Numbered from the stretch's first letter, positions 4,437-18,701 are shown. The stretch is DNA of 32,000 nt from Nostoc sp. PCC 7120 = FACHB-418 (GCF_000009705.1 NC_003272.1:780001-812000); one strand, 5' to 3'. Numbers and translations: made by a program. The notes: generated by a model not told the origin, from the sequence alone.

Positions 4437-5537
4437 TTAAGCAGTCCGAAAACGCGCCAACTCCTCGCCTGTCTTCGCATCATGGGCGTGGACAGTACAC
4501 ACCAGACAAGAGTCAAACGATCGCGCAACGTGTCCCACTTCCACAGGATCTCTAGAATCTTCAATAGGAGTCCCGATTAAAGCTTCCTCAATAGGGCCGC
4601 GTACCCCTTCACTATCACGGGGGCCGACGTTCCAAGTAGTCGCAGCAATCACCTGATAATTCTTAATCTTGCCACCTTCTATATCTATCCAGTGACACAA
4701 AGAACCCCGTGAGGCTTCCGTTGCACCCCAACCACGTCCGTCTTTTTCTTTGGGTTTGATATACCAAGGATCATTTAAGACAAACTCACGCAGACATCTT
4801 TCTGCTTGGCGATATAACTTGACAATTTCGTGAACTCGTGCAAGTTGACGCAAATGAATACTAGCACCACCCATTTTTTGGAAAGCATCCAAGATAAAAC
4901 CGTCGTAATGTTGCCAAGATTCGCCATGCTGACCACCTGCAACTAGCTGGCGGGCTAGGGGGCCGACTTCCAAGCGTCCGAAGTCTTGGTGTAGTACGGC
5001 TGTTGACCAAGAGTAGGCATTTTTGAAGTCTTTAGTATTTTTCTGGGTGGGTTTGGTGGTACGGTCAAAGGGGTGAACATCTGCGTTACCTTCATCATAC
5101 CAGGCGTGGGTGGTATTCTCACGGGCGAAGGTGTGATCCATCAAAGTGTGTGTATTCTCGAAGCTGTCATACACACCACTTTTCATAATCATGGCGGCGT
5201 TGCGTCCTTCGATGGTGGGCTTTTGGTATTTATCTTCATGGGGTAGGTATCCCCAGGAGACGTATTTACCCACACCAGCCCCGTATCTATCCAAACCGAT
5301 ATCTAAACCCATACGCCAATAGAAACCCAAGTCTGACTCACGATGCTTGATGTCTGCTTCTAACCAGTCCATGAAGTCATCGTAAGTTTGAATTTCTTCG
5401 TAGCGTTCCAAAGAACAACCCAACCACACAGGTTCTAACCAGTTGGTGCGGAAGTATTCGAGAATTGCCCAAGCGCGGGTAATGTCGGTTAAGGTGGGGG
5501 CGCACATCACACCACCAGGCACCATATAACTGCTGTG
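4437..5537 (-). CDS. hupL: Uptake [NiFe]-hydrogenase large subunit HupL, 3' segment (interrupted gene; includes one 16-bp core)
   Basis: The ORF begins MVPGGVMCAPTL... and ends with the C-terminal Ni-ligand motif DSCLVCTVH followed by a short tail (AHDAKTGEELARFRTA) of the kind removed by the maturation protease. It continues the reading frame of segment 14957-15467 across the repeat. Confidence 0.95.
   Translation of the reverse strand, partial: HSSYMVPGGVMCAPTLTDITRAWAILEYFRTNWLEPVWLGCSLERYEEIQTYDDFMDWLEADIKHRESDLGFYWRMGLDIGLDRYGAGVGKYVSWGYLPHEDKYQKPTIEGRNAAMIMKSGVYDSFENTHTLMDHTFARENTTHAWYDEGNADVHPFDRTTKPTQKNTKDFKNAYSWSTAVLHQDFGRLEVGPLARQLVAGGQHGESWQHYDGFILDAFQKMGGASIHLRQLARVHEIVKLYRQAERCLREFVLNDPWYIKPKEKDGRGWGATEASRGSLCHWIDIEGGKIKNYQVIAATTWNVGPRDSEGVRGPIEEALIGTPIEDSRDPVEVGHVARSFDSCLVCTVHAHDAKTGEELARFRTA
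5522..5537. repeat. 16-bp recombination core (left copy) CCATATAACTGCTGTG
   Basis: Identical to 14957-14972 in direct orientation. The reverse complement CAC AGC AGT TAT ATG G encodes HSSYM of HupL. Confidence 0.95.
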
Positions 5538-5652: not shown

Positions 5653-7149
5653 ATGAGCGGACAAAATCAGGGGAATTGCGAGGAGACATATTCCACATCT
5701 ACACATGAATATGCAAATGCAGACTCAACCGACTGGTTCGCAGATATGTTTGCAGATTTTGAGCCGCAGAACACCACAGACGGCAGCTATAGGGGAACAA
5801 TGGCGAAAATAAAAGCAACGGAATTACAGTATCAAGCAGTTTTTGAACAGAAGTTAGTCGAAGCCAATACTAATTTAAAAAGGGAGAGAATAAGAGTTAG
5901 CATTAAACAGACTGGTAATTCTCTCCAATTACGAGCTACCCTACCCTTAAAACCAGGGGATGGTAGTTTAGGTAAGACAAAAAAACAGTATGATTTGTCT
6001 CTAGGGATACCAGCAAATTTAGAAGGACTGAAAACTGCAATTGAAGAAAGTTACGAGTTGGGTAAATTAATCGCTCGTCATACTTTCGAGTGGAATGAGA
6101 AGTATTTAGGAATTAAATCTAGAGAGAAGCAAGAAATAAAAACTATTGGGGAATTATTAGATAAATTTGAGGAAAAATATTATCAAACCCGTCAGAAAAC
6201 TATAACCAGTCAAAATACTTTTCCTAACTATATATCTGTAATTAAAAGAAACTTTCCTCTCACCCATTTAGCCACAAAAGAAAATTTTGAGGAAATTATT
6301 AATTCAGTTCAGGGGAATAAAAAAAATGAACTAATTGCCGTAACTTCTGTTTTTATTAAAACCTTTAATTTAGGATTTCAACTCGATGTTAAACGTGATA
6401 ATGTCACCCCTGCTCATCGAGAAATACCTGAAGATGACAAAATAATATATTCTTTTGACCTCTTTGAAAAATTCGCCCTCAATCGCAAAAATACAAATAT
6501 TAGTGATGAAATCGACACCTGGGAAATGTGGCGTTGGGTATATGGAATGTTGGCGACATTTGGGTTAAGACCAAGGGAACTATTTGTACAACCAGATATT
6601 AATTGGTGGATGTCTCCCCAAAATCTAGACCATACTTGGAAAGTCAATAAAAATACAAAAACTGGATATCGAGAAGTTATTCCTTTTGTTCCTGAATGGA
6701 TAGAATTATTTGATTTAAAAAATCCCAAACCATTAAAGATTTTAGAAAAAAAGGTGACAAAAATTGCATCTGTACAAAATATTAATTGGATGCGGAGAGA
6801 TATATCCAGATGGTTTAGAAAAGTGGGAATTGAGTTTCAACCCTACGATTTGCGTCATGCTTGTGCAATTCGAGCGCATCTTCAAGGAATACCTATTAAA
6901 GCAGCAGCAGATAATTTAGGTCATACTGTTGATGAACATACAAAAACCTATCAAAGATGGTTTGGTATTGAAAATAGGAAAAAAGCCTTTGGTGAGGTAA
7001 TTAGTCAAAAGTCATTAATTGAGTTGCAGAAGAATGAAATATTGGCGTTACGGATGGAGAATGAAAGGTTAAGGTTGGAGGTGGAAAAGTTGAAATTTTC
7101 GACAACTAAAAATCCAGAGGACTGTGAACAGCTTTACCATCAAGGTTAA
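5653..7149 (+). CDS. xisC: Site-specific recombinase XisC (XisA/XisC family, divergent tyrosine recombinase)
   Basis: The 498-aa ORF lies at the element border. It contains the [14 protein letters not shown]...[43 protein letters not shown] block that I recognise as conserved with XisA. C-terminal catalytic residues are present ([26 protein letters not shown]). Confidence 0.9.
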
Positions 7150-7252
7150 GAATGTGCGTATAAATCATGGTGATTTTGACATCCTTGTGTCCGAGTAATT
7201 CCTGAAAAGTGCGAATGTCATAAGAATTTTGCAGTAAATGGGTAGCTCGCAT
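7106..7252 (-). pseudogene. Remnant of the 3' end of an integron-integrase/XerD-like tyrosine recombinase gene
   Basis: Manual minus-strand translation gives [48 protein letters not shown]. This matches the ATHLL-x-x-GYDIRTVQELLGH-x-DV-x-TTMIYTHVL-x-x-GG-x-GV-x-SPLD C-terminus typical of IntI-type integrases. A stop lies 6 codons upstream of the M, so only about 45 codons survive. The last 44 nt overlap the xisC 3' end in antisense. Confidence 0.6.
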
Positions 7253-7329
7253 CTTGCACCTGTTCCATCAATTTTTTTGGGCGTGTTCCATAATAAAAAC
7301 ATCCTGAAAATTCTGTCTAATCTCCTAAT

Positions 7330-8319
7330 ATGGAATATATTTCATCAGCTTTGCGTTTGGAATTTCGTGAATTCTGTGTCGAGCTAGTTCTGCGTCAGAT
7401 TGATGATATGTTCCAAATGGCTGGTATTCAACCAGGCCAACCTGAGCGTGTTGTTAGTGGTGCGAGACGTTCACGTGTTGAGGAATACTATGCATCTATA
7501 GACTGGACTAACTTAACGGATACTCAAAAATTCTTAAAAGTTATAGGATTGGTGTTATCGCAATCCTATATTTCTGATGAGAGAAAAGAGTTTATACGAA
7601 ATATATGTATAAAAGAAGGCTTGATTGTTGAGGGGGAACAAATCCAACTGCCGCAAATAACATCTCCTAATGAACCTGATGATTTATTTATGCATCAATT
7701 TCCTGGGGGACTTCCTTTTGGATTGGTGAAACCTGAGTTTGCTGTAACTGCCAAAGAAGGCAAGCAATCACTGAAATTTGAATTGAAGTCTGGCATAGGT
7801 ATTATTTGGCGGGGTGTATATCCAAATTTTGATTTTCCAACTTTTCAAACTGCTTGTGGAATTAACTCGGAAACAAACCTAGCACTAAAAAAAGCTCTTC
7901 TTGCCATGAATCAAACTGAATCTGAAAAAATATTTTTTCAGTCATATGCCAAACATTTCGGCATGGCGGATAATCATATACCAATGTTAATTCCACAAGC
8001 CTGGATACAATGGCATTCGTCATCAAAAAAGGTTTTGCAAGCTTCAGGAAGTTCACTAGCAAAAGAACTGTATCGTGTAGATTTTGTCGCATTTTGGAAT
8101 AATCATAGATATGCGATATTGATTGACGACATTAGCCATTACGCGATAAAGCATGGTAATCAGTGGATAGCTGATGAGGAAACCTACTCAAAACGCCTAG
8201 AGGAAGATCGAAAATTACAAGTAGAGGGATGGAATATTTTTAGAGTGAGTAATTGGGAGGTCAGGCAGAATAAAGTGAGTGAAATAGTTATTGACTTACA
8301 AAAGTTCATTGGATTTTAA
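7330..8319 (+). CDS. Hypothetical protein with C-terminal Vsr/DUF559-like (restriction-endonuclease-fold) domain
   Basis: 329-aa ORF. The C-terminal block YRVDFVAFWNNHRYAILIDDISHY...EEDRKLQVEGWNIFRVSNWEV follows the DUF559/Vsr-like pattern (RVDF..., hydrophobic-I-(D/E)-x-D-x-x-H, DR-x-L-x-x-x-GW-x-x-x-R-x-x-x-x-E). The N-terminal about 230 aa are unassigned. Confidence 0.55.
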   Translation: MEYISSALRLEFREFCVELVLRQIDDMFQMAGIQPGQPERVVSGARRSRVEEYYASIDWTNLTDTQKFLKVIGLVLSQSYISDERKEFIRNICIKEGLIVEGEQIQLPQITSPNEPDDLFMHQFPGGLPFGLVKPEFAVTAKEGKQSLKFELKSGIGIIWRGVYPNFDFPTFQTACGINSETNLALKKALLAMNQTESEKIFFQSYAKHFGMADNHIPMLIPQAWIQWHSSSKKVLQASGSSLAKELYRVDFVAFWNNHRYAILIDDISHYAIKHGNQWIADEETYSKRLEEDRKLQVEGWNIFRVSNWEVRQNKVSEIVIDLQKFIGF

Positions 8320-8523
8320 GTGCGATGCCTGCGGCGGGCGTAGCCATTGCCTATCTTGTCGGGTGCTTACTCCGCCGATAAATTCATGGGAACACACCAA
8401 GATTGTAGACTTTAAGCAAGCGATCGCAGTCTAGAGGTGTTAGATTTGCCGTTAAACATATTTGAGTGCGATCGCTCAATTTCCATTATCTTGTGCTTCC
8501 GTAACTACTATTAACTGCGATCC
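8319..8523. repeat. Cassette-terminal repeat, copy A (HIP1-rich, hairpin-forming)
   Basis: It starts on the last base of the 7330-8319 stop codon. It aligns with 9346-9552 over its full length, and with 10343-10453 except for a roughly 50-bp internal block. The core is AGCGATCGCAGTC-N36-GAGTGCGATCGCT. Confidence 0.85.
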
Positions 8524-8637
8524 CTATCAAGTAGAGAATCTTAGCTTAGATTATCAAGGGATTGAAATAGGATCACGTTAATATAGTTTAATGTAATATG
8601 AAGAGAATGTTTTAATAAATTAACTCGTATTTTACCT

Positions 8638-8973
8638 TTGATAATTCATATTTTACGAGAACCTGCAACACCTAGCCAAATCAACGAGATGCTTCAAGCT
8701 AATCGTTTCTATATTAAAACAGCCGTAGATATACGTCATCAAATTTTGGCAGGTGGAGGTGAAATGCACTCGGACTGCGAAACAATTTTACTGGAGAATG
8801 GAAGTCAACAGCAGGATATTTGGGGCGCGAGTTGGAATCCTATTTCTCAAGAAATTTTCTATGAATCAATGGTAAATCTCCGACCACGTCAAAATAGAGC
8901 GATGGAAATTTTAGATCCAGCGATTCGGGAAGAGGTCAAACAAATCATCCACAAGTTATTAGGAGGCGTATGA
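8638..8973 (+). CDS. DUF5674-like small protein
   Basis: 111-aa ORF with a TTG start and no in-frame ATG. MIIHILREPATPSQINEML...AVDIRHQILAGGGEMHSDCE...DIWGASW matches my memory of the DUF5674 consensus. It overlaps the next ORF by ATGA. Confidence 0.55.
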   Translation: MIIHILREPATPSQINEMLQANRFYIKTAVDIRHQILAGGGEMHSDCETILLENGSQQQDIWGASWNPISQEIFYESMVNLRPRQNRAMEILDPAIREEVKQIIHKLLGGV

Positions 8974-9317
8974 ATAACTGGACTTTAGAACAAACTGCAT
9001 TTCGGTGCGATCGCCTTTCTGTACGTCTTGAACGATTAGCACAGAACTTTCTGCAAATGGCATCTCTCAGTTTGGATGGGGTTAATGGGGAAGCTGTACT
9101 TGGGATTGTTAGAGAAAGTAAAGTATTTTTAGAACTGACAGCGATTGATTTAGATGTGGACAGTGCCTTTGAACTGGCTCAAATGCAACGTCAATTGTCT
9201 CGATGGCATATTCATTGGTGGTCAACTTGGGCAAGTGATTCTAGTCGTCTGGAAATTTCAACTTTGTCTCAAACCTGGGCAAATCGAATTAAACAGATGG
9301 CAAGAGTTCTGGTTTAA
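8970..9317 (+). CDS. Hypothetical protein, translationally coupled to the DUF5674-like gene
   Basis: 115-aa ORF. Its ATG overlaps the upstream TGA (ATGA), and AGGAGG lies at 8961-8966. It looks helical, with a Trp-rich C-terminal part (SRWHIHWWSTWASD). No family recognised. Confidence 0.55.
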   Translation: MNNWTLEQTAFRCDRLSVRLERLAQNFLQMASLSLDGVNGEAVLGIVRESKVFLELTAIDLDVDSAFELAQMQRQLSRWHIHWWSTWASDSSRLEISTLSQTWANRIKQMARVLV

Positions 9318-9345
9318 ATTCCCATCTCTTAACTTTGATATGCTT

Positions 9346-9552
9346 AGTGCGATGCCTGCGGCGGGCGTAGCCATCGCCTATCTTGTGGGGTGCTTACTCC
9401 GCCGATAAATTCCTCTTAACGTACCAAGATTGTGGACTTTAATCAAGCGATCGCAGTCTAGAAGTGTTAGATTTACTGTTAAACATATTTGAGTGCGATC
9501 GCTCAATATTCATTTTCTTGTGCTTCCTTAACTACTATGTAACTGCGATCGC
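9346..9552. repeat. Cassette-terminal repeat, copy B
   Basis: Starts 29 bp after the 8970-9317 stop and is near-identical to copy A. The sequence just beyond it (about 9553-9567, CAATATCCAAACAAAG) reappears at the left edge of the second ATPase repeat (13129-13144). Confidence 0.85.
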
Positions 9553-9687
9553 TCAATATCCAAACAAAGTGCGATCGCCGATCTTGTAGGATGCATTAAT
9601 GAAATGTAATGCACCTTTTGGATGCTTATTATTTCTGCGATACGCTTTTTCGCTAAATTATAATCAGGGAAACAGCAAGATGAGATT

Positions 9688-9927
9688 ATGAACTTAGATA
9701 CAATTCAACAAGATATTGAGTCTCTTCCTCCCGATGCACAACAAATCATAGTGGATCTCGTAGAAGTTCTGAAAAAACGCTACCTTCTGAATCAACACGA
9801 ATCTTCAGCAAATTCCTTACAAGACTGGTCAGACTTTATCGGTTGCATAGAAGCTGAAACAGACCTCTCAAAAAACTATAAAAACTACTTAGACCATGAA
9901 CTTAACCAAAAATATGATCATAGTTGA
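9688..9927 (+). CDS. Type II antitoxin, DUF2281-like
   Basis: 79-aa ORF. The N-terminal IQQDIESLPPDAQQIIVDLVEVLKKRY matches the DUF2281 antitoxin pattern. It overlaps the downstream PIN gene. Confidence 0.6.
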   Translation: MNLDTIQQDIESLPPDAQQIIVDLVEVLKKRYLLNQHESSANSLQDWSDFIGCIEAETDLSKNYKNYLDHELNQKYDHS

Positions 9928-10339
9928 TACAGGCTTTTGGTTAGCTCTTGCCAATAAAAAAGATACAGTTCATATATCCGCCAAAAAACGATTTCAAGAT
10001 TTAGCTAATCAGCAATTTATTACGACTTGGTGTGTCGTCACGGAAACGTGCTATCTATTACAAAAAAGAGTAGGAGTAGATGCTCCAAAAATCTTTATTC
10101 ATAAAATTTCTACAGGAAAGCTACAAATCTTTGATCTGAAACAACATCATTGCCAGCGTATTGAAGAACTGATGGAAAAATATAAAGACTTACCGATGGA
10201 TTTAGCCGATGCCTCTCTCGTTATTTTGGCAGAAGAATTAGGTCATGGTCAAATTTTATCGGTTGATTATCGAGACTTCAACACCTATCGCTGGAAAAAT
10301 ACAGAACCTTTTGATAACCTCTTTCAGGAATTTTTATGA
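9896..10339 (+). CDS. PIN-domain toxin (VapC-like ribonuclease)
   Basis: PIN acidic residues occur in the expected context: IIVDTGFWLAL, VVTETCYLL, PMDLADASLVILAEE, SVDYRDF. The start is either 9896 or, more likely, the ATG at 9914 (MIIVDTG). Confidence 0.75.
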   Translation: MNLTKNMIIVDTGFWLALANKKDTVHISAKKRFQDLANQQFITTWCVVTETCYLLQKRVGVDAPKIFIHKISTGKLQIFDLKQHHCQRIEELMEKYKDLPMDLADASLVILAEELGHGQILSVDYRDFNTYRWKNTEPFDNLFQEFL

Positions 10340-10342
10340 CGT

Positions 10343-10453
10343 AGTGCGACTATAAATTCCTGGGAATGTAGCAGGATTATAGAATTTAATCAAGCGATCG
10401 CAGTCTAGAAGTGTTAGATTTACTGTTAAACATATTTGAGTGCGATCGCTCAA
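10343..10453. repeat. Cassette-terminal repeat, copy C (short form)
   Basis: Starts 4 bp after the PIN gene stop. It equals copies A/B minus the internal tgcctgcggcgggcgtagcc...ctccgcc block and keeps the AGCGATCGCA...TGCGATCGCT hairpin core. Confidence 0.85.
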
Positions 10454-12081
10454 ACAAAGAAATCAATCATACAAAATACTTACGCCCGAATCACAGTAAT
10501 CCTACGCTGATTTTCTGTCACCACAACCTGAGTTGACAAACGTTCTTCCATTGGCAAAGCATTTTTCCGCCTATCAAACACAAATAACCAACCAAAATCC
10601 AACCCCAAACGCCCTAAATAGGATTCTAACTGCTCAATCCCCTCAGCTTGGGGGTCACGCTTTTTCTCCCGCCATACCTTTAACTCAATACCTAACGTGA
10701 CATCTTTGTAACGCAGACATAAATCCATTCTGTCGCTACCAATTGCATATTCCCGTTCTAGGGTTCCACCACCATTAACAACACGATGCAAGAAAGCCAT
10801 TAATACGATATGCGGTGCAATTTCATGATAGCCAGTGCTACCTAATAACGGTTCTCCATGCTGTCGCCAAAACTTGAGAAATGCTGCAAGTAACGCATCT
10901 ATATTTAACTCTCCTTCTGGGGTTAACCAAGTTGGTGCAATCACTGGTAAAGAAGCCATTGGTGTCACCGTTAACACCCTGGGCAAAACTTCTCGATAAA
11001 TGGGATTAGCAATGGTTAATCCACCTTGGGGGTGCATTTTACATAAACCTAAATCAATCACAAATTGAATGTCATCATTGGGTATATCCCCCAATTCCAA
11101 ACCCGCTAACATCGGCTCGATAATTGCTTTGATTCTTGGTTCTCGTAAGCGTTCAGCTAAACTATCAAGATGAGTATCTTGACGAGCAATTAATATTTCT
11201 TTAGCTTGTAAAATATGTTCTTTAGTAATAGCAATACTTCTATCTTTCACCATTTTTTCCACAACTTCTTTAGCCAGAGCATTCACTAACCAAGGTTGTC
11301 CTTGGGTTAAATCAAAGGCTGTTGCAGTTGCTTCTGGTGTGAAAATTTGTCCTGTTGCTGCTGTATGTTGTTGATATAGTTCTACAACTTCTTCGGCATT
11401 AAAATTTCTCAGAGTAATGGAAGTGACTTTAATATTAAAAGGACTGGATGTGTTTAACCTGTCACTACCACCGGATGCTACTTTATAATCTCGCACATCC
11501 CGTAAACCAATTAATCCTACTGATGAGGGGAAATTTTCTGGACGACTGCGATAGCCTTCACGTAACTGTCGTAAAACTGAAATTAATGTTTGGTCTTGTA
11601 AGGAATCAATTTCATCTATAAGTAATACTAACGGACGCTTGATAGCTCTTGACCAAGCTCTTAAATTTTCGCCAATTCTCTGTCCAGGCGCATTATAAAC
11701 CCAATTTGGGGGTTGTAGTTCTGGGGGTAAGTTATCTTCAATTGTATTCTGCCAAGTTCCCAAAATTGCTAATTCTGCTGCACTGGGGTCATGATTAAAT
11801 GCACTTCCTACCTCTACCGATACCATTACTGCTGCATAAAGTCCTGTATCGGTAAGTTGCTGTGCTAGAGCTAACATTGCTGTGGTTTTCCCTGTTTGTC
11901 GCGGTGCATGAAGGACAAAATAACTTTCTTGTTCAATCAGCAATGATAAGTCGGGGAGACGACTTGTGGCTGAGATGGTGTAGTGCTTTTCAGGGTTACA
12001 AGGGCCTGCAATGTTGAACCAGCGAGACATGGGATTTTGGCAGTTGGCGGACACTTTGAGTTTAGACGATTTTGGAGTTGG
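10451..12081. repeat. 1.63-kb direct repeat, copy 1 (contains the intact ATPase gene)
   Basis: Aligns with 13136-14772 from caaacaaagaaatcaatc to gattttggRgttgg. The part encoding the C-terminal two thirds of the protein is near-identical. The part encoding the N-terminal third contains divergent patches. Confidence 0.9.
10480..12030 (-). CDS. P-loop ATPase with C-terminal PD-(D/E)XK nuclease-like domain
   Basis: Walker A is HAPRQTGKTT and Walker B is LVLLIDEID. The C-terminus has EREY...DRMDLCLRYKDVTLGIELKVW (D...E-x-K). The ATG at 12030 (MSRWFNIAGPC) is preferred over the GTG at 12054 because the paralog starts at the equivalent ATG. Confidence 0.8.
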   Translation of the reverse strand: MSRWFNIAGPCNPEKHYTISATSRLPDLSLLIEQESYFVLHAPRQTGKTTAMLALAQQLTDTGLYAAVMVSVEVGSAFNHDPSAAELAILGTWQNTIEDNLPPELQPPNWVYNAPGQRIGENLRAWSRAIKRPLVLLIDEIDSLQDQTLISVLRQLREGYRSRPENFPSSVGLIGLRDVRDYKVASGGSDRLNTSSPFNIKVTSITLRNFNAEEVVELYQQHTAATGQIFTPEATATAFDLTQGQPWLVNALAKEVVEKMVKDRSIAITKEHILQAKEILIARQDTHLDSLAERLREPRIKAIIEPMLAGLELGDIPNDDIQFVIDLGLCKMHPQGGLTIANPIYREVLPRVLTVTPMASLPVIAPTWLTPEGELNIDALLAAFLKFWRQHGEPLLGSTGYHEIAPHIVLMAFLHRVVNGGGTLEREYAIGSDRMDLCLRYKDVTLGIELKVWREKKRDPQAEGIEQLESYLGRLGLDFGWLFVFDRRKNALPMEERLSTQVVVTENQRRITVIRA

Positions 12082-12379
12082 GTATTTTTTTCTGTTTAAA
12101 CTCTGTGGGAGTCAACCAGTATAAATAAAAACTTCCTATTAAGTCCTCTCTGTTTGGTAGGAATAGTACTTAACCCGGATCACATTCTGCACCTATTTGA
12201 GTATTTTTTTATACTTTATTTTATCAAGAGTTTTGTGAAAAATTCTGTTTAATATCCGAAGAAGGATATGAAAAAGAGATTTTTTGTATAATTTTATATA
12301 ATAATGAGGTGATAAACTAAATATATTTCAGGTTTTGATGATGTTTTCAATAGATAAGATACTGATTTGATTAATTGCC

Positions 12380-12952
12380 ATGACAAATCAAGGGCTTGAG
12401 TCGATTAGTGTGAATGAACAGACAATTTACTGGGCAGTGCGTTCTGGAGTTGCCGTAGGAGTACAGAAATATACAAAAACTCATGTGACTGGTGGCTATG
12501 GAGATTCAGCTCCATCCTCTCAAATTGAGACGATTATAGAGTTTTCTCTTCAACAAGAGAGTGGAAATGAAATTGAGATGAAATTTAGAAGAGAAGACAT
12601 TCGAGTTCGAGACGGTCAGAGGGTATCAGCAGTTTTTGGCTATACCGAAAGTAAAACTAGCTACTGGCTAATCTTTATCAACCATGATAGTAACAAATGG
12701 TATTGGGTAGATACACCTTATTCATTTTTTAGGAAGCTTGAAATATTTGTATTGTTATCAGATTGGTGGATTGCATTTTTTCTAGCAGTCATTGCTATCT
12801 CTCTAGTTGTCTCTTCAGAGTGGGCGATTTTTGGAATAATTGTTGGAACTTTTGGAATTATATTTCTTATAATTCAGAGATGTCGATGTCAATTAGCTTG
12901 GAATATGGTAAAGCCTCAAATTATTGAGATATTATCTCAATTAAGAGAATAA
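12380..12952 (+). CDS. Hypothetical two-TM membrane protein in AT-rich DNA
   Basis: 190-aa ORF with a soluble N-terminal about 125 aa followed by two hydrophobic helices (IFVLLSDWWIAFFLAVIAISLVV, WAIFGIIVGTFGIIFLII). The gene and its upstream region are visibly AT-rich compared with the flanks. Confidence 0.6.
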   Translation: MTNQGLESISVNEQTIYWAVRSGVAVGVQKYTKTHVTGGYGDSAPSSQIETIIEFSLQQESGNEIEMKFRREDIRVRDGQRVSAVFGYTESKTSYWLIFINHDSNKWYWVDTPYSFFRKLEIFVLLSDWWIAFFLAVIAISLVVSSEWAIFGIIVGTFGIIFLIIQRCRCQLAWNMVKPQIIEILSQLRE

Positions 12953-13135
12953 AGTAATTTTCCATTCATGAAAAGCAGTTGCTGCGTTAACCGGTCGAAC
13001 AATCTGCTTGCACACTGACTGTATTGAAATGCTTGATTAAGAACGAAAGTTTACTAGCGGCGGATGAAGAGGCGCGTTAAACATCTTTGAAAAAAGCGAT
13101 GGGCAAAGCCCGGTCTCCGACCATCGCGCAATATC

Positions 13136-14772
13136 CAAACAAAGAAATCAATCGTAAAAAATACTCACGCCCGAATCACAGTAATCCGACGCTGATTTTC
13201 CGTCAGCACAACCTGAGTTGACAAACGTTCTTCCATTGGGAGGGCATTTTTACGCCTGTCAAACACAAATAACCAACCAAAATCCAACCCCAAACGAGCT
13301 AAGTAGGATTCTAACTGCTCAATTCCCTCAGCTTGGGGGTCACGCTTTTTCTCCCGCCATACCTTTAACTCGATACCTAACATGACATCTTTGTAACGCA
13401 GACATAAATCCATTCTGTCACTACCAATTGCATATTCCCGTTCTAGGGTTCCACCACCATTAACAACACGATGTAAGAAAGCCATTAATACGATGTGAGG
13501 GGCGATTTCATGATAGCCAGTGCTACCTAATAACGGTTCTCCATGCTGTCGCCAAAACTTGAGAAATGCTGCCAGTAGCCCATCTATATTTAACTCTCCT
13601 TCTGGGGTTAACCAAGTGGGTGCAATCACTGGTAAAGAAGCCATTGGTGTCACCGTTAACACCCTGGGCAAAACTTCTCGATAAATGGGATTAGCAATGG
13701 TTAATCCACCTTGGGGGTGCATTTTACATAAACCTAAATCAATCACAAATTGAATGTCATCATTGGGTATATCCCCCAATTCCAAACCCGCTAACATCGG
13801 CTCGATAATTGCTTTGATTCTTGGTTCTCGTAAGCGTTCAGCTAAACTATCAAGATGAGTATCTTGACGAGCAATTAATATTTCTTTAGCTTGTAAAATA
13901 TGTTCTTTAGTAATAGCAATACTTCTATCTTTCACCATTTTTTCCACAACTTCTTTAGCCAGAGCATTCACTAACCAAGGTTGTCCTTGGGTTAAATCAA
14001 AGGCTGTTGCTGTGGCTTCTGGTGTGAAAATTTGTCCTGTTTCTTGTGTATGTTGTTGATATAGTTCTGCCACTTCCTCGGCATTGAAATTTCTCAGGGT
14101 AATGGAAGTGACTTTAATATTAAAAGGACTGGATGTGTTTAATCTGTCACTCCCACCGGATGCTACTTTATAATCTCGCACATCTCTTAAACCGATTAAT
14201 CCCACCGATGAGGGAAAATTTTCTGGACGATTAGGAAAACCATCTCGTAATTGTCGTAAAACTGAAATTAATGTTTGGTCTTGTAAGGAATCAATTTCAT
14301 CTATAAATAATACTATTGGAAGATTTATAGCTCTTGACCAAGCTCTTAAAAAAGCCTTAATTCTATTTCCTGCTTCTTGCTGTTGCGATTGTTTAGCTGA
14401 TGGTTGTAATTCTGGAGGTAATCTATCCTCAATCGTATCATACCAAGTTCCCAAAATTGCCAATTCTGCCGCACCTGGATCATGATTGAATGCACTTCCC
14501 ACCTCGACCGATACCATTACTGCTGCATAACGTCCTGTATCAGTAAGTTGCTGTGCTAAAGCTAACATTGTGGTGGTTTTCCCTGTTTGTCATGGTGCAT
14601 GAAGGACAAAATAACTACGCTGTTGGATTAGCTCCTCCAAATCTGGTAATCGTGTTGTTGGAGATAGCATATAGTGGATATCGTCTTCACATGGACCTGC
14701 AATATTGAACCAGCGAGGCATGGGATTTTGGCAGTTGGCGGACACTTTGAGTTTAGACGATTTTGGGGTTGG
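13136..14772. repeat. 1.63-kb direct repeat, copy 2 (contains the disrupted ATPase gene)
   Basis: See 10451-12081. It ends about 185 bp from the right recombination core. Confidence 0.9.
13165..14721 (-). pseudogene. P-loop ATPase/PD-(D/E)XK paralog inactivated by an in-frame TGA beside the Walker A motif
   Basis: Manual translation from the ATG at 14721 gives MPRWFNIAGPCEDDIHYMLSPTTRLPDLEELIQQRSYFVLHAP*QTGKTTTMLALAQQL. The TGA at 14590-14592 corresponds to CGA (Arg) in copy 1. The 467-aa ORF in the track restarts after the P-loop. Confidence 0.8.
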
Positions 14773-14956
14773 AGTGAGGCAATGTAGGGAAAAGTTAGGT
14801 AACGCCTGAGAAAAGCAAATAACTTTTAGTAGATAAAAATAAATGGATTGATGATATTTCTGGAGTGGCTTTATTGCCTAATTTAAGGAAAAATCAGGGA
14901 ATCATTGCACCTATCCTGGTAAATCCTGACTACATAAGCAATTTCCTAATTTATTT

Positions 14957-14972
14957 CCATATAACTGCTGTG
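14957..14972. repeat. 16-bp recombination core (right copy) CCATATAACTGCTGTG
   Basis: Identical to 5522-5537 and lies inside the hupL reading frame. Confidence 0.95.
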
Positions 14973-15467
14973 CGGCCATTGTCCGCCAAACAGGGCGTAA
15001 ATTTCTACGGGTTTGCTGGAAATGGTCACGCCGAGTTCATAAGATTTACCTGTGTAGGCAGAAAAGCGGCGGACGGCTTCATCGTAGAAGCGGCTACTAC
15101 GGTATTTTTTATTTGTTAGGTCAATGGCGAACAATCCATAAAAGTAGCGGGGGATGCTTTGGATGGTTTCGACAATTTGACCGAGGTTTCTGGCTAAGAT
15201 GGCGTTGCGGGGAACGGTTGTATTCCATGCTGTATCTAATGCCCATGATGCAGAGGTTAAGTGAGAAGCACCGCAGATACCGCAGATACGAGGCGTAACA
15301 ATTAATCCAGCTTGGGGGTCTTTACCACGAAGAATGATTTCAAAGCCGCGAAATAGTTCGGCGTGTGTCCAGGCGTTAACTACCCTTCCGTCTTCTATTT
15401 CCACACGGACATCTAAATCACCCTCGACTCTACCGACGGGTGATATATCTAATGTTTTGATTGTCAT
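14957..15467 (-). CDS. hupL: Uptake [NiFe]-hydrogenase large subunit HupL, 5' segment (interrupted gene)
   Basis: MTIKTLDISPVGRVEGDL... carries the N-terminal Ni-Fe ligand motif RICGICGASH. The frame runs to ...GGQWPHSSYM and then meets a stop 3 codons into element DNA (EIN*). Confidence 0.95.
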
Positions 15468-15535: not shown

Positions 15536-16498
15536 CTAAACTGTGAAAAAGTCTTCTTCTGCCCATTTGGGGGCTGTGTCTTTAGCCACCATTGTGAGGA
15601 CAGCGTAGTTTTTATTGCTTACTCCTGGCGGTAGTTCTTTGGGTACTCCCATGATGGTTTGGGTTTTAAATACGGTTCCGGGTTTGAGGTCGAAGAAGGG
15701 GAACTCTGGTTCTGTGCAACCTAAACAGGGCATTCCGGCGCGGGTTTTGGAGGAGACGCGATTCCAGAGGATGCGGTTGCAGGAGGAATGAGTCATGGGG
15801 CCGCGACAACCCAAGTCGTAGAATAAACAGCCTTTGCGTTGTCCAAATTCGGCGGTGGTGGCTTTGTAGGCGAAGTGGACGTTACGAGTACAGCCTGTTT
15901 GGGTGAAGGTGTTAAAGAAGGTTTGGGGGCGATTGAGTTCATCGAGGGCGATGTCGCCGATGCGTCCGGTAGCGATCGCCACTAATATCTGCGTAATCCA
16001 ATCGGGATGGGCTGGACAACCGGGAATATTGATGACTGGTAGCCCTGATTTGGTGCGGAAATCTTGACCCAAGAAACCGCCACCTTTGCGTTTGAGGAAT
16101 TGCAAGCCTTGGGATTCGCTGGGGTTTGGTTCCATTGCGGGGATTCCTCCCCAGGTGGCGCAGTCTCCCACGGCGACGACAAAACTAGCGGCTTGGGCGA
16201 GGTCGGTTAGCCAATCTTTCATGGGGCGATCGGCAAAACGGTTCCATTCGCCTGTACCGTTGGGGGCGTTAACTACAGTGCCTTCAAAGACCAAAATGTC
16301 TAGAGGGATTTTGCCTAAGATGCAATCCCAAAGTAAGGTTTGTAAGTTGTCGCCTAGTTCCAGTCCTAAGGAAGGATGCCAAAGTACCTTGATCCCAAAA
16401 TCAGCAATTAAATCGCATACTGTCGGTTCTTCGGCGTTGAGAAAAGACATGGTGTTGCCTGAACAAGCACCACCTTGCAGCCAGAGTACGTTAGTCAT
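15536..16498 (-). CDS. hupS: Uptake [NiFe]-hydrogenase small subunit HupS
   Basis: 320 aa. The N-terminal WLQGGACSGN and later GDCATWGGIP, PGCPAHPDW, CRGP...C and CLGCTEPEFP Fe-S cluster ligand motifs are present. There is no twin-arginine signal peptide, as is usual for cyanobacterial HupS. It lies immediately upstream of hupL. Confidence 0.95.
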   Translation of the reverse strand: MTNVLWLQGGACSGNTMSFLNAEEPTVCDLIADFGIKVLWHPSLGLELGDNLQTLLWDCILGKIPLDILVFEGTVVNAPNGTGEWNRFADRPMKDWLTDLAQAASFVVAVGDCATWGGIPAMEPNPSESQGLQFLKRKGGGFLGQDFRTKSGLPVINIPGCPAHPDWITQILVAIATGRIGDIALDELNRPQTFFNTFTQTGCTRNVHFAYKATTAEFGQRKGCLFYDLGCRGPMTHSSCNRILWNRVSSKTRAGMPCLGCTEPEFPFFDLKPGTVFKTQTIMGVPKELPPGVSNKNYAVLTMVAKDTAPKWAEEDFFTV

Positions 16499-16998: not shown

Positions 16999-17265
16999 AT
17001 GAATGAATTTTTTAGTAACTCTCATCTTCGTGAATTTCTGATCAATATGGTAACAAGTGATGTCACTTTCATCACGGGATTGTTTTGGTTAGTTGTAGCC
17101 ACGCTTATATCAATGATTGGCGGCGCTATTGGTGGGATGGTATTGGCTGGGAAAGATATTGGCTATGGTTTTTCAGCCACAATTGGAGCATTGTTTGCGC
17201 CGGCGGGGGTAATTCCTGCTATTGTTTTGGGTCTGGGTTTACTAAGTTTCTTGAGTAATTATTAG
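16999..17265 (+). CDS. Small hydrophobic protein (first ORF of the conserved cluster upstream of hypF)
   Basis: 88 aa with two Gly-rich TM helices (LFWLVVATLISMIGGAIGGMVLAG, GALFAPAGVIPAIVLGLGLL). It is followed 8 nt later by the next ORF, with GGAGG before that start. Confidence 0.6.
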   Translation: MNEFFSNSHLREFLINMVTSDVTFITGLFWLVVATLISMIGGAIGGMVLAGKDIGYGFSATIGALFAPAGVIPAIVLGLGLLSFLSNY

Positions 17266-17273
17266 GAGGTAAT

Positions 17274-17498
17274 ATGTTGGAATTAGGTTGGTTGTCGGCG
17301 AGGTTATTTTTGAAGGGTAAGCTACTACGTGACCCGATATATTTTATGAGGCAAACTCTGATAGGTAGTACTATCGGTTTGTTAGTGCTAGTGTTACTTG
17401 CTCAGGCGGAAATTCCTTTTTGTTTGCCAGTAACTATCTCTAGTTTAACTACAGGTATAATCATGCCATTTCTTCTCAAAGATTTCAAAATGAAGTGA
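17274..17498 (+). CDS. Small hydrophobic protein (second ORF of the cluster)
   Basis: 74 aa with two hydrophobic segments, tightly spaced behind 16999-17265. Confidence 0.55.
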   Translation: MLELGWLSARLFLKGKLLRDPIYFMRQTLIGSTIGLLVLVLLAQAEIPFCLPVTISSLTTGIIMPFLLKDFKMK

Positions 17499-17711: not shown

Positions 17712-18701
17712 ATGACACCCAGCATTACAGATTCAACAGTAAAAGCTGCATTGGCCGCCATTGCATCGGAGTCAGCGACAACTGAAGAGAAAATTCAGAT
17801 GTTGATTGAATTGGCACAAGGTTTGCAGAAAAAACCTAAAACGCCTGGGGATTTATGGAATGCTGTTGAGTTATATCAGCAAGCAATTAAAATGTGCGGT
17901 GGGGATTATTCTTTATGGAAAGCCCGTTCTCAGGCGGGAATGGCTGGGGCGTTGAAGTCAATTCCTGATGTGGGGGCGGAATTGCTGCTACAAGCTAAAG
18001 CTGGTTATGAGGAAGCGTTACCAGTTCTGCGACAGTTGGCTGCGGCGGTGGAAGTTGCAGAAGCCCAGATGAATTTCGGGTTGGTGTTGCAGTCTTTAGT
18101 GCCTTTTAATTTGGCGAGGATAACCGATAGTATTGCTGCTTATCAGGAGGCGATGGGGGTATTTACAAGTCAGGATTATCCTCAAGAATACGCGATTTTG
18201 GCGAATAATGTTGCGATCGCCTACCTTTCTATGTCGGGGGGTGGAGAACAGCAAAATCTCTATGCAGGTTTGGCTGTACAGACCTTTGAGTCAGCACTCA
18301 AGCAAATTAACTTGATTGACCACCCCAGGGAATATGCCATGTTGCAAAATAACTTGGGTAATGCTTTGCAATATTTACCCAGTTCTCATCCTGTGGAAAA
18401 TAATTTACGGGCGATCGCAGCCTATAATGAAGCATTAAAGGTACGTACTTGTCAAGGTACGCCTGTGGAGTATGCAAACACGATTGCCAACAAGGCTAAT
18501 GCTTTATTTAATTTACCTGATGACCCGGAAAAGCCAGAGTTAGGTAATTCCCAAAATCTTTTACAAGCCCGTGCTTATTATCAAGAGGCTTGGGAAATAT
18601 TTAGTCAATGTCAGCAAATGGAACAGGCGGAGGCGGTAGCCCAGGCGTTGCATGAAGTAGCAGCAGAAATTAGGATAAGCATGAGTAATGGCGACAAATA
18701 A
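17712..18701 (+). CDS. TPR-like repeat protein (hydrogenase-cluster associated)
   Basis: 329 aa with repeated about 40-aa units of the form A-x-x-Y-x-EA(L/M)...P-x-EYA-x-x-x-NN(L/V)-x-x-A(Y/L), for example AAYQEAMGVFTSQDYPQEYAILANNVAIAYL and AAYNEALKVRT...EYANTIANKANALFNL. Confidence 0.7.
   Translation: MTPSITDSTVKAALAAIASESATTEEKIQMLIELAQGLQKKPKTPGDLWNAVELYQQAIKMCGGDYSLWKARSQAGMAGALKSIPDVGAELLLQAKAGYEEALPVLRQLAAAVEVAEAQMNFGLVLQSLVPFNLARITDSIAAYQEAMGVFTSQDYPQEYAILANNVAIAYLSMSGGGEQQNLYAGLAVQTFESALKQINLIDHPREYAMLQNNLGNALQYLPSSHPVENNLRAIAAYNEALKVRTCQGTPVEYANTIANKANALFNLPDDPEKPELGNSQNLLQARAYYQEAWEIFSQCQQMEQAEAVAQALHEVAAEIRISMSNGDK

Follow-up and report, generated by a model that had tools for sequence, protein, structure and literature searches.

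Why the elements that interrupt heterocyst genes persist in cyanobacteria, and whether they act as helper or as parasite, is a decades-old question. Here we address it with the hupL element of Nostoc/Anabaena PCC 7120, which lies in a 32,000-nucleotide stretch of Nostoc sp. PCC 7120 = FACHB-418 DNA (GCF_000009705.1, NC_003272.1:780001-812000; hereafter the window, to which all coordinates refer). This element splits hupL, the gene for the [NiFe] hydrogenase large subunit, and is excised by its tyrosine recombinase XisC. The element itself has already been described (Carrasco et al. 1995, 2005) and our finding concerns its cargo. Surveys call the cargo of interruption elements hypothetical proteins and treat the elements mainly as taxonomic markers (PMC4874684; PMC8461463). 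They mention one hypothetical protein common to five hupL elements or 'one or two' shared genes, and conclude that the elements are without vital function or are phage remnants (PMC4874684; PMC8461463; bioRxiv 10.1101/629832). Our full-text searches found no literature linking interruption elements to toxin-antitoxin (TA) or defence cargo, and none naming the cargo locus tags. The best explanation of the data as a whole, to which we give a probability of about 0.6, is that the cargo would consist of horizontally traded TA and nuclease cassettes, combining addiction with candidate defence slots, turning over through repeats and spreading with the whole element through XisC. The hupL element would then look like an active selfish, possibly defensive, element.

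The borders of the element are well defined. Two exact copies of a 16-bp direct repeat, CCATATAACTGCTGTG, sit within the two halves of hupL, and their spacing in a repeat search of the window gives an element of 9,435 bp, which is likewise the published length (PMC8461463, Table 2). A. variabilis ATCC 29413 carries no such element according to the same survey. Beyond these two copies, no CCATATAACTGCTGTG-like site was found in the 32-kb window with up to three mismatches allowed. Immediately within the left border is xisC (Pfam Phage_integrase, E 1.2e-6; PHROG integrase, E 6e-12), and XisAC_N and XisAC_2nd are recorded on an identical protein in precomputed Pfam data. Region 7106-14772 is the cargo of this XisC-excised element. 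The borders and the surrounding host genes are as follows, the host parts of hupL and hupS having been delimited as open reading frames (ORFs).

5522-5537, plus strand: left 16-bp core direct repeat, the XisC recombination site, exact match to CCATATAACTGCTGTG
14957-14972, plus strand: right 16-bp core direct repeat, exact match to CCATATAACTGCTGTG
5653-7149, plus strand: xisC, tyrosine recombinase of 498 aa (Pfam Phage_integrase, PHROG integrase)
4437-5525, minus strand: 3' part of hupL, host DNA outside the element (Pfam NiFeSe_Hases on the identical gene)
14946-15467, minus strand: 5' part of hupL, host DNA
15536-16498: hupS, after the 5' part of hupL

Excision of the PCC 7120 hupL element takes place at heterocyst differentiation, a matter of literature knowledge rather than a property of the sequence, and work from 2005 by Carrasco and colleagues reportedly found xisC alone to be enough for recombination in Escherichia coli. 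The element contains no tRNA gene, and an Rfam scan of it gave no match.

What, then, does the element carry? Homology between the window and other elements falls into discrete blocks that comprise A (7320-8320), B-C (to 9317), D-E (approximately 9640-10340) and F (10470 to approximately 12080). The breaks between blocks coincide with ORF ends, and the unit is a gene or gene pair with a leader of approximately 10-45 nt, ending at the stop codon. Rather than a random remnant, the cargo is thus shown to be a series of compact cassettes (A, B-C, D-E, F, G and H). All genes listed by an initial sequence-only reading of the window were recovered at its coordinates. The cassettes, and the linker repeats that immediately follow the A, C and E stop codons, are:

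7330-8319, plus strand: A, 329 aa, in the slot adjoining xisC (assigned by motif and fold)
8638-8973 and 8970-9317, plus strand: the B-C pair, B a Pfam DUF5674 protein and C a protein of 115 aa
9688-9927 and 9896-10339, plus strand: the D-E pair, predicted VapBC-type, D of 79 aa and E a PIN protein with a VapC26 match
10480-12054, minus strand: F, AAA+/winged-helix/PD-(D/E)XK-like by prediction (Pfam AAA_35, AlphaFold2, Foldseek)
12380-12952, plus strand: G, 190 aa, in the slot between the F-type paralogs (hydropathy)
13165-14745, minus strand: H, F paralog adjoining the right border, with one in-frame TGA at 14590-14592
8319-8530, plus strand: linker repeat copy 1, directly 3' of the A stop codon
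9346-9570, plus strand: linker repeat copy 2, beginning with a generic Nostoc dispersed 30-mer and ending with the 58-nt core
10342-10480, plus strand: linker repeat copy 3, a truncated copy that stops at the 3' end of F

The same building blocks recur in other hupL elements. One genome per species was scanned, giving 80 loci with XisC relatives, 39 of which hold both junctions (complete elements); in nearly all of them the 3' half of hupL lies directly upstream of xisC (75 of 80 loci). Cargo length ranges from 2.0 to 9.9 kb across loci. The cargo ORFs form approximately 290 clusters, part of which was covered by Pfam annotation, and clustering reveals a mosaic of recurring small modules whose order is partly conserved. 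Where two counts are given below, they refer to the first and the second partner.

DUF2281 and PIN: 23 and 19 loci
DUF433 and DUF5615 (PIN-like): 26 and 17 loci
DUF6036 nucleotidyltransferase and a 101-aa partner: 19 and 23 loci
DUF5674 and a 115-aa protein: 12 and 13 loci
72-aa protein and a retropepsin-like (aspartyl) protease: 16 and 13 loci
127-aa protein and a Tox-PL-2 papain-fold toxin: 11 and 8 loci
73-aa protein and a ParE-like protein: 7 and 6 loci
96-aa protein and TumE: 5 loci
Y1 transposases associated with repetitive extragenic palindromes: 6 loci
F-type ATPase (AAA/PD-(D/E)XK): 32 loci

At least one Pfam-supported toxin-type gene is present in 24 of the 39 complete elements, and an F-type gene likewise in 24 of 39. 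The F-type gene mostly stands last in the cargo, adjoining the right junction. It is frequently present in duplicate, and the DNA that separates the copies varies. An IS630-type transposase occurs in some elements. A PIN protein identical to E is encoded in at least five element architectures, each inside a split hupL. Together, these data show that the cassettes are drawn from a pool common to hupL elements throughout the Nostocales.

How recently this pool has been exchanged can be read from a comparison with the host gene. Divergence is given as the median of raw third-codon-position differences with the window as reference, which is not a codon-model estimate. The host sequences differ at 0.47 (3' half of hupL), 0.43 (5' half of hupL) and 0.36 (hupS), and the element genes at 0.155 (xisC), 0.19 (F), 0.088 (D), 0.075 (E), 0.09 (B), 0.096 (C) and 0.05 (A, one locus). 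For xisC the value is below that of hupL from the same locus in 26 of 26 cases; it is below hupL in 12 of 12 cases for F, 20 of 20 for D and 15 of 15 for E. Codon positions 1 and 2 of the cassettes diverge 2-5 fold less than position 3, indicating that the cassettes are under purifying selection. Since cassettes and xisC are several-fold less diverged than hupL, recent movement between lineages is implied, and we conclude from these sequence comparisons that the whole element, and the cassettes still more recently, have probably moved between Nostocales lineages. Host divergence already amounts to 0.41-0.54 beyond approximately 40 codons from either junction, and the junction-proximal hupL bins are lower (0.29 and 0.34), partly through the invariant core; the exchanged DNA thus appears to be essentially confined to the element. 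Because of this confinement, we infer that site-specific integration at the conserved core fits better than long-flank homologous replacement.

The same figures bear on the possibility that the element is the leftover of an ancient mobile element or prophage, vertically inherited and slowly decaying, with no function but that of xisC. A premature stop in H, the near-orphan status of G and truncated F copies in some elements agree with such a history, as does published work that finds no genes of known function in, and no phenotype for, such elements (PMC8461463, PMC4874684). Yet the cassettes are intact and share 90-100% protein identity across genera, whereas hupL differs at 47% of its third positions, and both the 2-5 fold stronger conservation of codon positions 1 and 2 and the identical PIN proteins in different architectures are at odds with slow decay. 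Neither does the element have a phage character: PHROGs matched the integrase only among its ten proteins, as expected from the initial claim that phage-structural and metabolic cargo is lacking, and no XisC relative was found in IMG/VR. A prophage or phage-remnant origin was rejected on the same grounds (PHROGs showed no structural, lysis or replication genes, neither A nor the repeat matched phage sequences, and IMG/VR yielded no XisC relative). The neutral remnant is already disfavoured, and we consider it improbable.

Having preferred traded and selected cassettes over a decaying remnant, we asked what they encode. The B-C pair corresponds to the translationally coupled small proteins predicted at 8638-9317, since the two genes are indeed present and overlap by 4 nt (ATGA). 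B is a DUF5674 protein (Pfam E 2e-32), and C has no family in Pfam, NCBIfam or PADLOC and no relative in the PDB. In D-E, a small antitoxin-like gene is located directly upstream of a PIN toxin gene with an overlap of 32 nt. E exceeds the Pfam PIN cutoff (E 2e-7, 32.1 bits versus 23.6), aligns over almost its full length with Mycobacterium tuberculosis VapC26 (E 9e-10) and has acidic residues D11, E50, D102/D105 and D123 as read off its sequence; it is predicted to be a good VapC-type PIN toxin. D matches DUF2281 below the cutoff (E 1.8e-3, 19.3 bits versus 26.5) and its VapB match is sub-threshold too, but it fits an antitoxin because of its size, its position and its overlap with E. From the DUF2281/PIN pair named in the sequence-only reading, the PIN toxin and its overlapping partner are therefore retained, while the DUF2281 label stays below threshold. 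Overall, D-E is a predicted VapBC-type TA module. It shares with type II VapBC systems, including the cyanobacterial PIN-COG2442/DUF433 type, a small antitoxin gene overlapping a VapC26-like PIN toxin gene; it differs in that D matches DUF2281 and VapB below threshold and in that the pairing of D and E is known from sequence. The PIN-COG2442 type was characterised as VapBC in Synechocystis (PMC3834315), and DUF433-DUF5615 pairs are common in sister elements.

In our proposal, the TA-type cassettes (D-E and perhaps B-C) would act as addiction modules that kill or arrest vegetative cells after untimely excision by XisC. Addiction would thereby keep the element in the dividing cell line, and losing the element in heterocysts would be free of cost because these cells do not divide. 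The reading of the cargo as conflict and addiction genes, as modules of a selfish type that are conserved, under selection and exchanged horizontally, is well supported by the comparative data.

A second functional layer is suggested by the genes next to xisC. Defence hotspots are variable gene slots beside integrases, as in P2/P4-like prophages, satellites, integrative and conjugative elements and genomic islands. The hupL elements resemble them in that a conserved backbone (xisC, the att sites and often F) frames a hypervariable slot with defence genes in sister elements. Indeed, the gene directly downstream of xisC differs in almost every element. Occupants of this first slot, and related genes elsewhere in the cargo, include (loci by L number):

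First slot, L079: Shedu SduA (E 3e-28)
First slot, L050: PDC-S51 (E 1.5e-135)
First slot, L011: DUF262 NsnA/PD-T4-2_A (E 6e-61), then a protein with an RxxxxH (HEPN-like) motif read from its sequence
First slot, L064/L046: EcoRI-type methyltransferase
First slot, L015: type IIG/type I methyltransferase with a specificity subunit
First slot, L049: endonuclease effector domain of the type found in cyclic-oligonucleotide-based antiphage signalling systems (CBASS)
First slot, L002: PDC-M36A
First slot, L018/L028: restriction-endonuclease-like domain protein
Elsewhere in the cargo, L031: PD-T4-6 kinase (E 1e-74)
Beside F-type genes: TIR_2 proteins in L023 and L029; SEFIR/TIR-GUN4 with a NUDIX neighbour in L038/L039

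One cargo protein of another element, from the same protein set as the EcoRI-type methyltransferase, matches EcoRI endonuclease. Some of the long partial loci may extend past the element end, as matches to HypD and HypF were seen. A comparison of hupL cargo across the Nostocales, proposed with the initial reading, thus yielded toxin-type genes in 24 of 39 complete elements and defence genes in the slot of A, a partial confirmation. The occupants of the same positions in sister elements are our basis for proposing that the variable slot by xisC (A) and the F-type ATPase/nuclease with its variable neighbor (G) could hold defence or anti-mobile-element genes. By position, A in the first slot and G in the slot beside F are candidate conflict genes, and by analogy with the sister elements a defence reading of the cargo is plausible. 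The hupL element nevertheless departs from known defence hotspots: it resides inside a developmental gene and is excised only in terminally differentiated cells, it lacks phage, conjugation and replication genes, and most occupants of the slot, including A, are not known defence genes.

Gene A itself was described by the sequence-only reading as a Vsr/DUF559-like nuclease fusion. Fold and motif agree with this description, whereas no family does: protein A has no match in Pfam, NCBIfam (E up to 0.1), PADLOC or PHROGs. It belongs to a tightly conserved family of approximately 330 aa with 282 homologs at 50-90% identity, distributed over cyanobacteria (Microcystis, Leptolyngbya, Microcoleus, Crocosphaera), Thiocapsa and a metagenome-assembled genome of Chloroflexi. 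The protein is laid out as a helical N-terminal domain, an invariant QFPxGLPFG motif and a C-terminal Vsr/DUF559-like nuclease domain. The C-terminus carries the invariant pattern YRVDF...(I/V)L(V/I)DDISHY...FRVSNWE with invariant residues D251, D266, D267 and H270. The AlphaFold2 model (mean predicted local distance difference test, pLDDT, of 75; residues 111-162 unmodelled) has as its best Foldseek neighbors a DUF559 protein (3hrl; TM 0.67, probability 0.85), the homing endonuclease I-Bth0305I, Hjc and Vsr, all at non-significant E-values (E > 0.1 for 3hrl and for 3r3p, the latter with a probability of 0.89). Among viral models, the neighbors are DUF2726, DUF559, group I intron endonuclease and restriction-enzyme proteins (E 3e-4 to 1e-2). 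By motif and fold, it is reasonable to read A as carrying a Vsr/DUF559/DUF2726-like nuclease fold. The most conserved stretch of A, residues 111-162 (window 7660-7830, QFPxGLPFGxxKP), has a pLDDT of 28-41 and may fold upon contact with a partner or nucleic acid only. Outside hupL elements, A homologs are found as solitary genes within small variable islets that also contain TA pairs, a reverse transcriptase and transposases. In the gammaproteobacterium Thiocapsa sp. KS1 (L084), an A homolog lies 2 kb from an AAA-ATPase_like/PDDEXK_9 gene and a Phd-PIN pair, a trio that matches the hupL element in three functional types via different protein families.

The opposite end of the cargo is dominated by F and H, which the sequence-only reading had called P-loop ATPases with a PD-(D/E)XK domain. 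The public annotation of F starts at the ATG at 12030 and gives a protein of 516 aa (PCC 7120 protein, 100% identical). F matches Pfam AAA_35 just above threshold (E 1.6e-7), the same model being below threshold for H, and AAA_16 falls below the Pfam threshold. Its AlphaFold2 model is confident (pLDDT 90.3, predicted template modelling score 0.87), and over its first approximately 370 residues it is similar to the archaeal Walker ATPases PAB2304 and SSO1545 (Foldseek, 2qen, E 2.7e-10), followed by weaker neighbors ORC1/Cdc6, RuvB and RFC. According to the model, this part is an AAA+ module with a winged helix, and the Walker motifs GKT and DEID are conserved in the family. Residues 385-524 form an alpha-beta-beta-beta-alpha-beta unit containing D441...E455-L-K457, which we read, from sequence pattern and secondary structure, as a candidate PD-(D/E)XK nuclease domain. 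Neither Pfam nor profile searches gave a nuclease family match for this domain, and the PDB profile search matched P-loops only; sequence searches of A, B, C and F against the PDB gave no informative match. The initial description thus holds for the AAA+ fold and for the alpha/beta domain with its D...ExK pattern. The predicted layout of an N-terminal P-loop ATPase with a C-terminal restriction-endonuclease-like domain is shared with AAA-ATPase_like (PF09820) plus PDDEXK_9 (PF08011) and with AAA_14 plus DUF4143; the Pfam models of both, however, do not match F. A profile of F reached 48% probability against an AAA-ATPase_like/PDDEXK_9 protein with the ATPase part alone aligned, and in L001 the F-type genes enclose an AAA_14-DUF4143 gene.

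H had been called disrupted, and this is due to one in-frame TGA, which stands in place of the Arg codon of HAP-R-QTGKT directly upstream of the Walker A GKT (APRQTGKT in F); there is no frameshift and the frame is otherwise open over 526 codons. Intact H orthologs occupy the same position in L001, L014 and L055. The DNA of F and H, spaced 2685-2691 nt apart, is 94% identical in the 3' 300 nt and 79% identical in the 5' 300 nt. A metagenome contig from the Joint Genome Institute (L122) has the gene order of the window minus the approximately 2.7-kb F-G segment, a deletion of exactly F-G as expected from recombination between F and H. The sequence (ATCGCTCAA...)ACAAAG flanks the 3' ends of F and H (10443-10464 and 13123-13144), and it is also present at 9548-9569, at the end of linker repeat 2 and upstream of D-E, where it resembles the remains of a former junction with an F-type gene. 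In L021, A abuts F at this same junction. L029 contains three tandem units of F-type ATPase, 88-aa gene and TIR_2 gene at 13.4-21.1 kb.

Between F and H, G was predicted to be a two-transmembrane protein, and hydropathy agrees: a single hydrophobic stretch of 52 residues (119-170) is interrupted by SSEW and can be read as a pair of transmembrane helices. With 10 homologs in 5.8 billion proteins, G is close to being an orphan, and it is absent from the other 80 loci. An obligate partnership with F was rejected, given that relatives of G are not linked to F-type ATPase genes; they adjoin a PemK module.

The prominence of F raises the alternative that ORC/Cdc6-like F and H serve the element itself, for instance if they process, maintain or transfer the excised circle or control recombination, and have no part in defence. 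F-type genes are the most frequent cargo (32 loci), usually placed and oriented in the same way at the border opposite xisC, and their AAA+ fold is that of initiators and loaders. Eight plasmid records from two Pseudanabaena strains contain F homologs at 61-65% identity, one per plasmid in seven; one homolog adjoins CHAT-TPR and TPR genes and another a tyrosine recombinase. A housekeeping role can draw on these single plasmid copies and on the one recombinase neighbor, whereas approximately one-third of complete elements lack F, the family is large (5286 clusters at 50% identity) and not confined to elements, and the TIR/SEFIR genes beside F in several elements and the CHAT-TPR gene beside a plasmid homolog form a typical conflict context. 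We therefore find such a role unlikely. As a separate matter, a plasmid replication function of F was rejected, for which the Pseudanabaena contexts were uninformative.

How do the cassettes turn over? The linker repeat, 110-210 nt long, contains a 58-nt core, TGCGATCGCTCAAAATCCATTTTCTTGTGCTTCCTTAACTGTGATTAACTGCGATCGC, with octamers of the highly iterated palindrome HIP1 at each end. A profile of the core had 123 matches across the window and the 80 loci; every one is on the xisC strand and inside the cargo (486 kb), with zero matches in 939 kb of flanks. The copies are placed between cassettes, either alone or in tandem. When 241 million metagenome records were scanned for exact matches to the core pattern, 31 contigs contained it, 27 of them with xisC, hupL or cassette genes; on contigs with xisC the linker has the xisC orientation, and the remaining four contigs are short and carry repeats only. 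The element-specific core is absent from Nostoc plasmids and phages, the phages sharing nothing. The 30-nt GTGCGATGCCTGCGGCGGGCGTAGCCATCGCC (8320-8351 and 9347-9378), in contrast, is a generic dispersed repeat distinct from this core; it looks like an insertion into a HIP1 octamer and is 97-100% identical on 22 Nostoc, Anabaena and Nodularia plasmids. In L090 (3.1-6.2 kb), more than 20 copies of the 58-nt linker stand in runs with few genes between them. Two roles of the linker were considered and dropped: an attC-like hairpin, as it folds only via terminal HIP1-HIP1 pairing and natural copies have z-scores of -1.3 to +0.5, and a conserved terminator, as the terminator-like stem of two window copies is not kept in the consensus. 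Secondary XisC core sites at cassette borders were not found with up to three mismatches, and pairs of the c7 gene and an aspartyl protease in opposite orientation proved to be divergent alleles, not inverted cassettes.

This organization invites comparison with sedentary chromosomal integrons such as the Vibrio superintegron with its VCR/attC repeats. Both have a tyrosine recombinase at one end, compact cassettes with minimal flanks followed by a repeat in the same orientation, and many TA pairs together with some defence genes. The compact cassette array separated by same-orientation repeats is indeed observed here. However, XisC is of the XisA/XisC type and not IntI (a weak generic integrase match only, with the XerA/integron model at 22.8 bits against a cutoff of 220), the repeat has no attC hairpin, and no site like the XisC core is found at the cassette borders. 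Moreover, hupL cassettes are on both strands, the repeat is present in 34 of 81 loci, and cassette mobility is inferred from sequence. Lacking IntI, the attC hairpin and a core site at cassette borders, the XisC element is not an integron. It is conceivable, but at low odds in our view, that XisC elements form an integron-like cassette platform that takes up, loses and horizontally trades TA and defence cassettes at the orientation-locked linker via a dedicated site-specific or HIP1-associated mechanism. In that case, the array would be parked in a gene needed only by non-dividing cells, so that the library would be free for the host, a notion we hold with equal reserve. If site-specific cassette exchange were true, it would represent a second, independent invention of integron-like gene capture. 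Plain homologous recombination at the linkers and between F and H is a simpler explanation of turnover than a dedicated mechanism. In our preferred model, cassettes would accordingly turn over via recombination at linker repeats and between the F/H paralogs, and the whole element would spread via XisC integration at the conserved hupL core.

Several points weigh against this model of traded addiction and defence cassettes. First, the defence content of the PCC 7120 element has no database counterpart: no PADLOC-DB 2.0 model was matched meaningfully by the ten element proteins (best matches, mad8 at E 4.7e-4 through the P-loop only and PDC-M02A at E 0.056), and scans against NCBIfam, PADLOC and PHROGs gave nothing beyond integrase, PIN and DUF5674, so that the PADLOC check suggested for the cargo came out negative. 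Second, B, C and G have no assignable function in family, homolog and PDB searches. The initial statement that every recognisable cargo gene belongs to a defence or addiction class overstates the case because B, C and G can be assigned to no class. Third, 15 of the 20 first-slot proteins of complete sister elements are without a PADLOC match. Fourth, TA modules are very abundant in cyanobacterial genomes, and the conserved hup/hyp flanks are the sole control. The raw divergence values, the occurrence of the linker repeat in mainly Anabaena/Dolichospermum-type elements (34 of 81 loci) and the state of H, a pseudogene in PCC 7120 and hence a decaying part of the cargo, add to these points.

The abundance of TA genes relates to a further alternative, purely selfish accretion, in which TA pairs and solitary nucleases are small mobile selfish genes that would build up in any dispensable DNA and the element merely offers a safe landing pad, with neither stabilization nor defence. 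Solitary A homologs next to PIN/Phd, DUF433, ParE, reverse-transcriptase and transposase genes in Microcystis, Leptolyngbya and Thiocapsa, relatives of G by a PemK module, and the Y1 and IS630-type transposases of some elements speak for this alternative. On the other hand, within the searched data cassettes and linker occurred in no context other than XisC elements, which speaks for a pool that belongs to the element and against general accretion, and bona fide defence systems sit in the fixed slot adjoining xisC. We consider accretion without function a less likely account of the cargo. The hupL element family appears young relative to its host gene, trades its cassettes horizontally, is loaded with addiction-type cassettes and has a defence-gene hotspot beside the recombinase. 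We nominate A, B-C and F (with G) as candidates for new conflict genes. No earlier description appears to exist of the pool of cassettes, their horizontal exchange, the linker repeat or the pattern of defence genes in the slot.

Outside the element, two small membrane-protein ORFs (88 and 74 aa; 16999-17498) and an ORF of 329 aa without a family assignment (17712-18701) follow just beyond hupS, and both groups keep the same position in related genomes.

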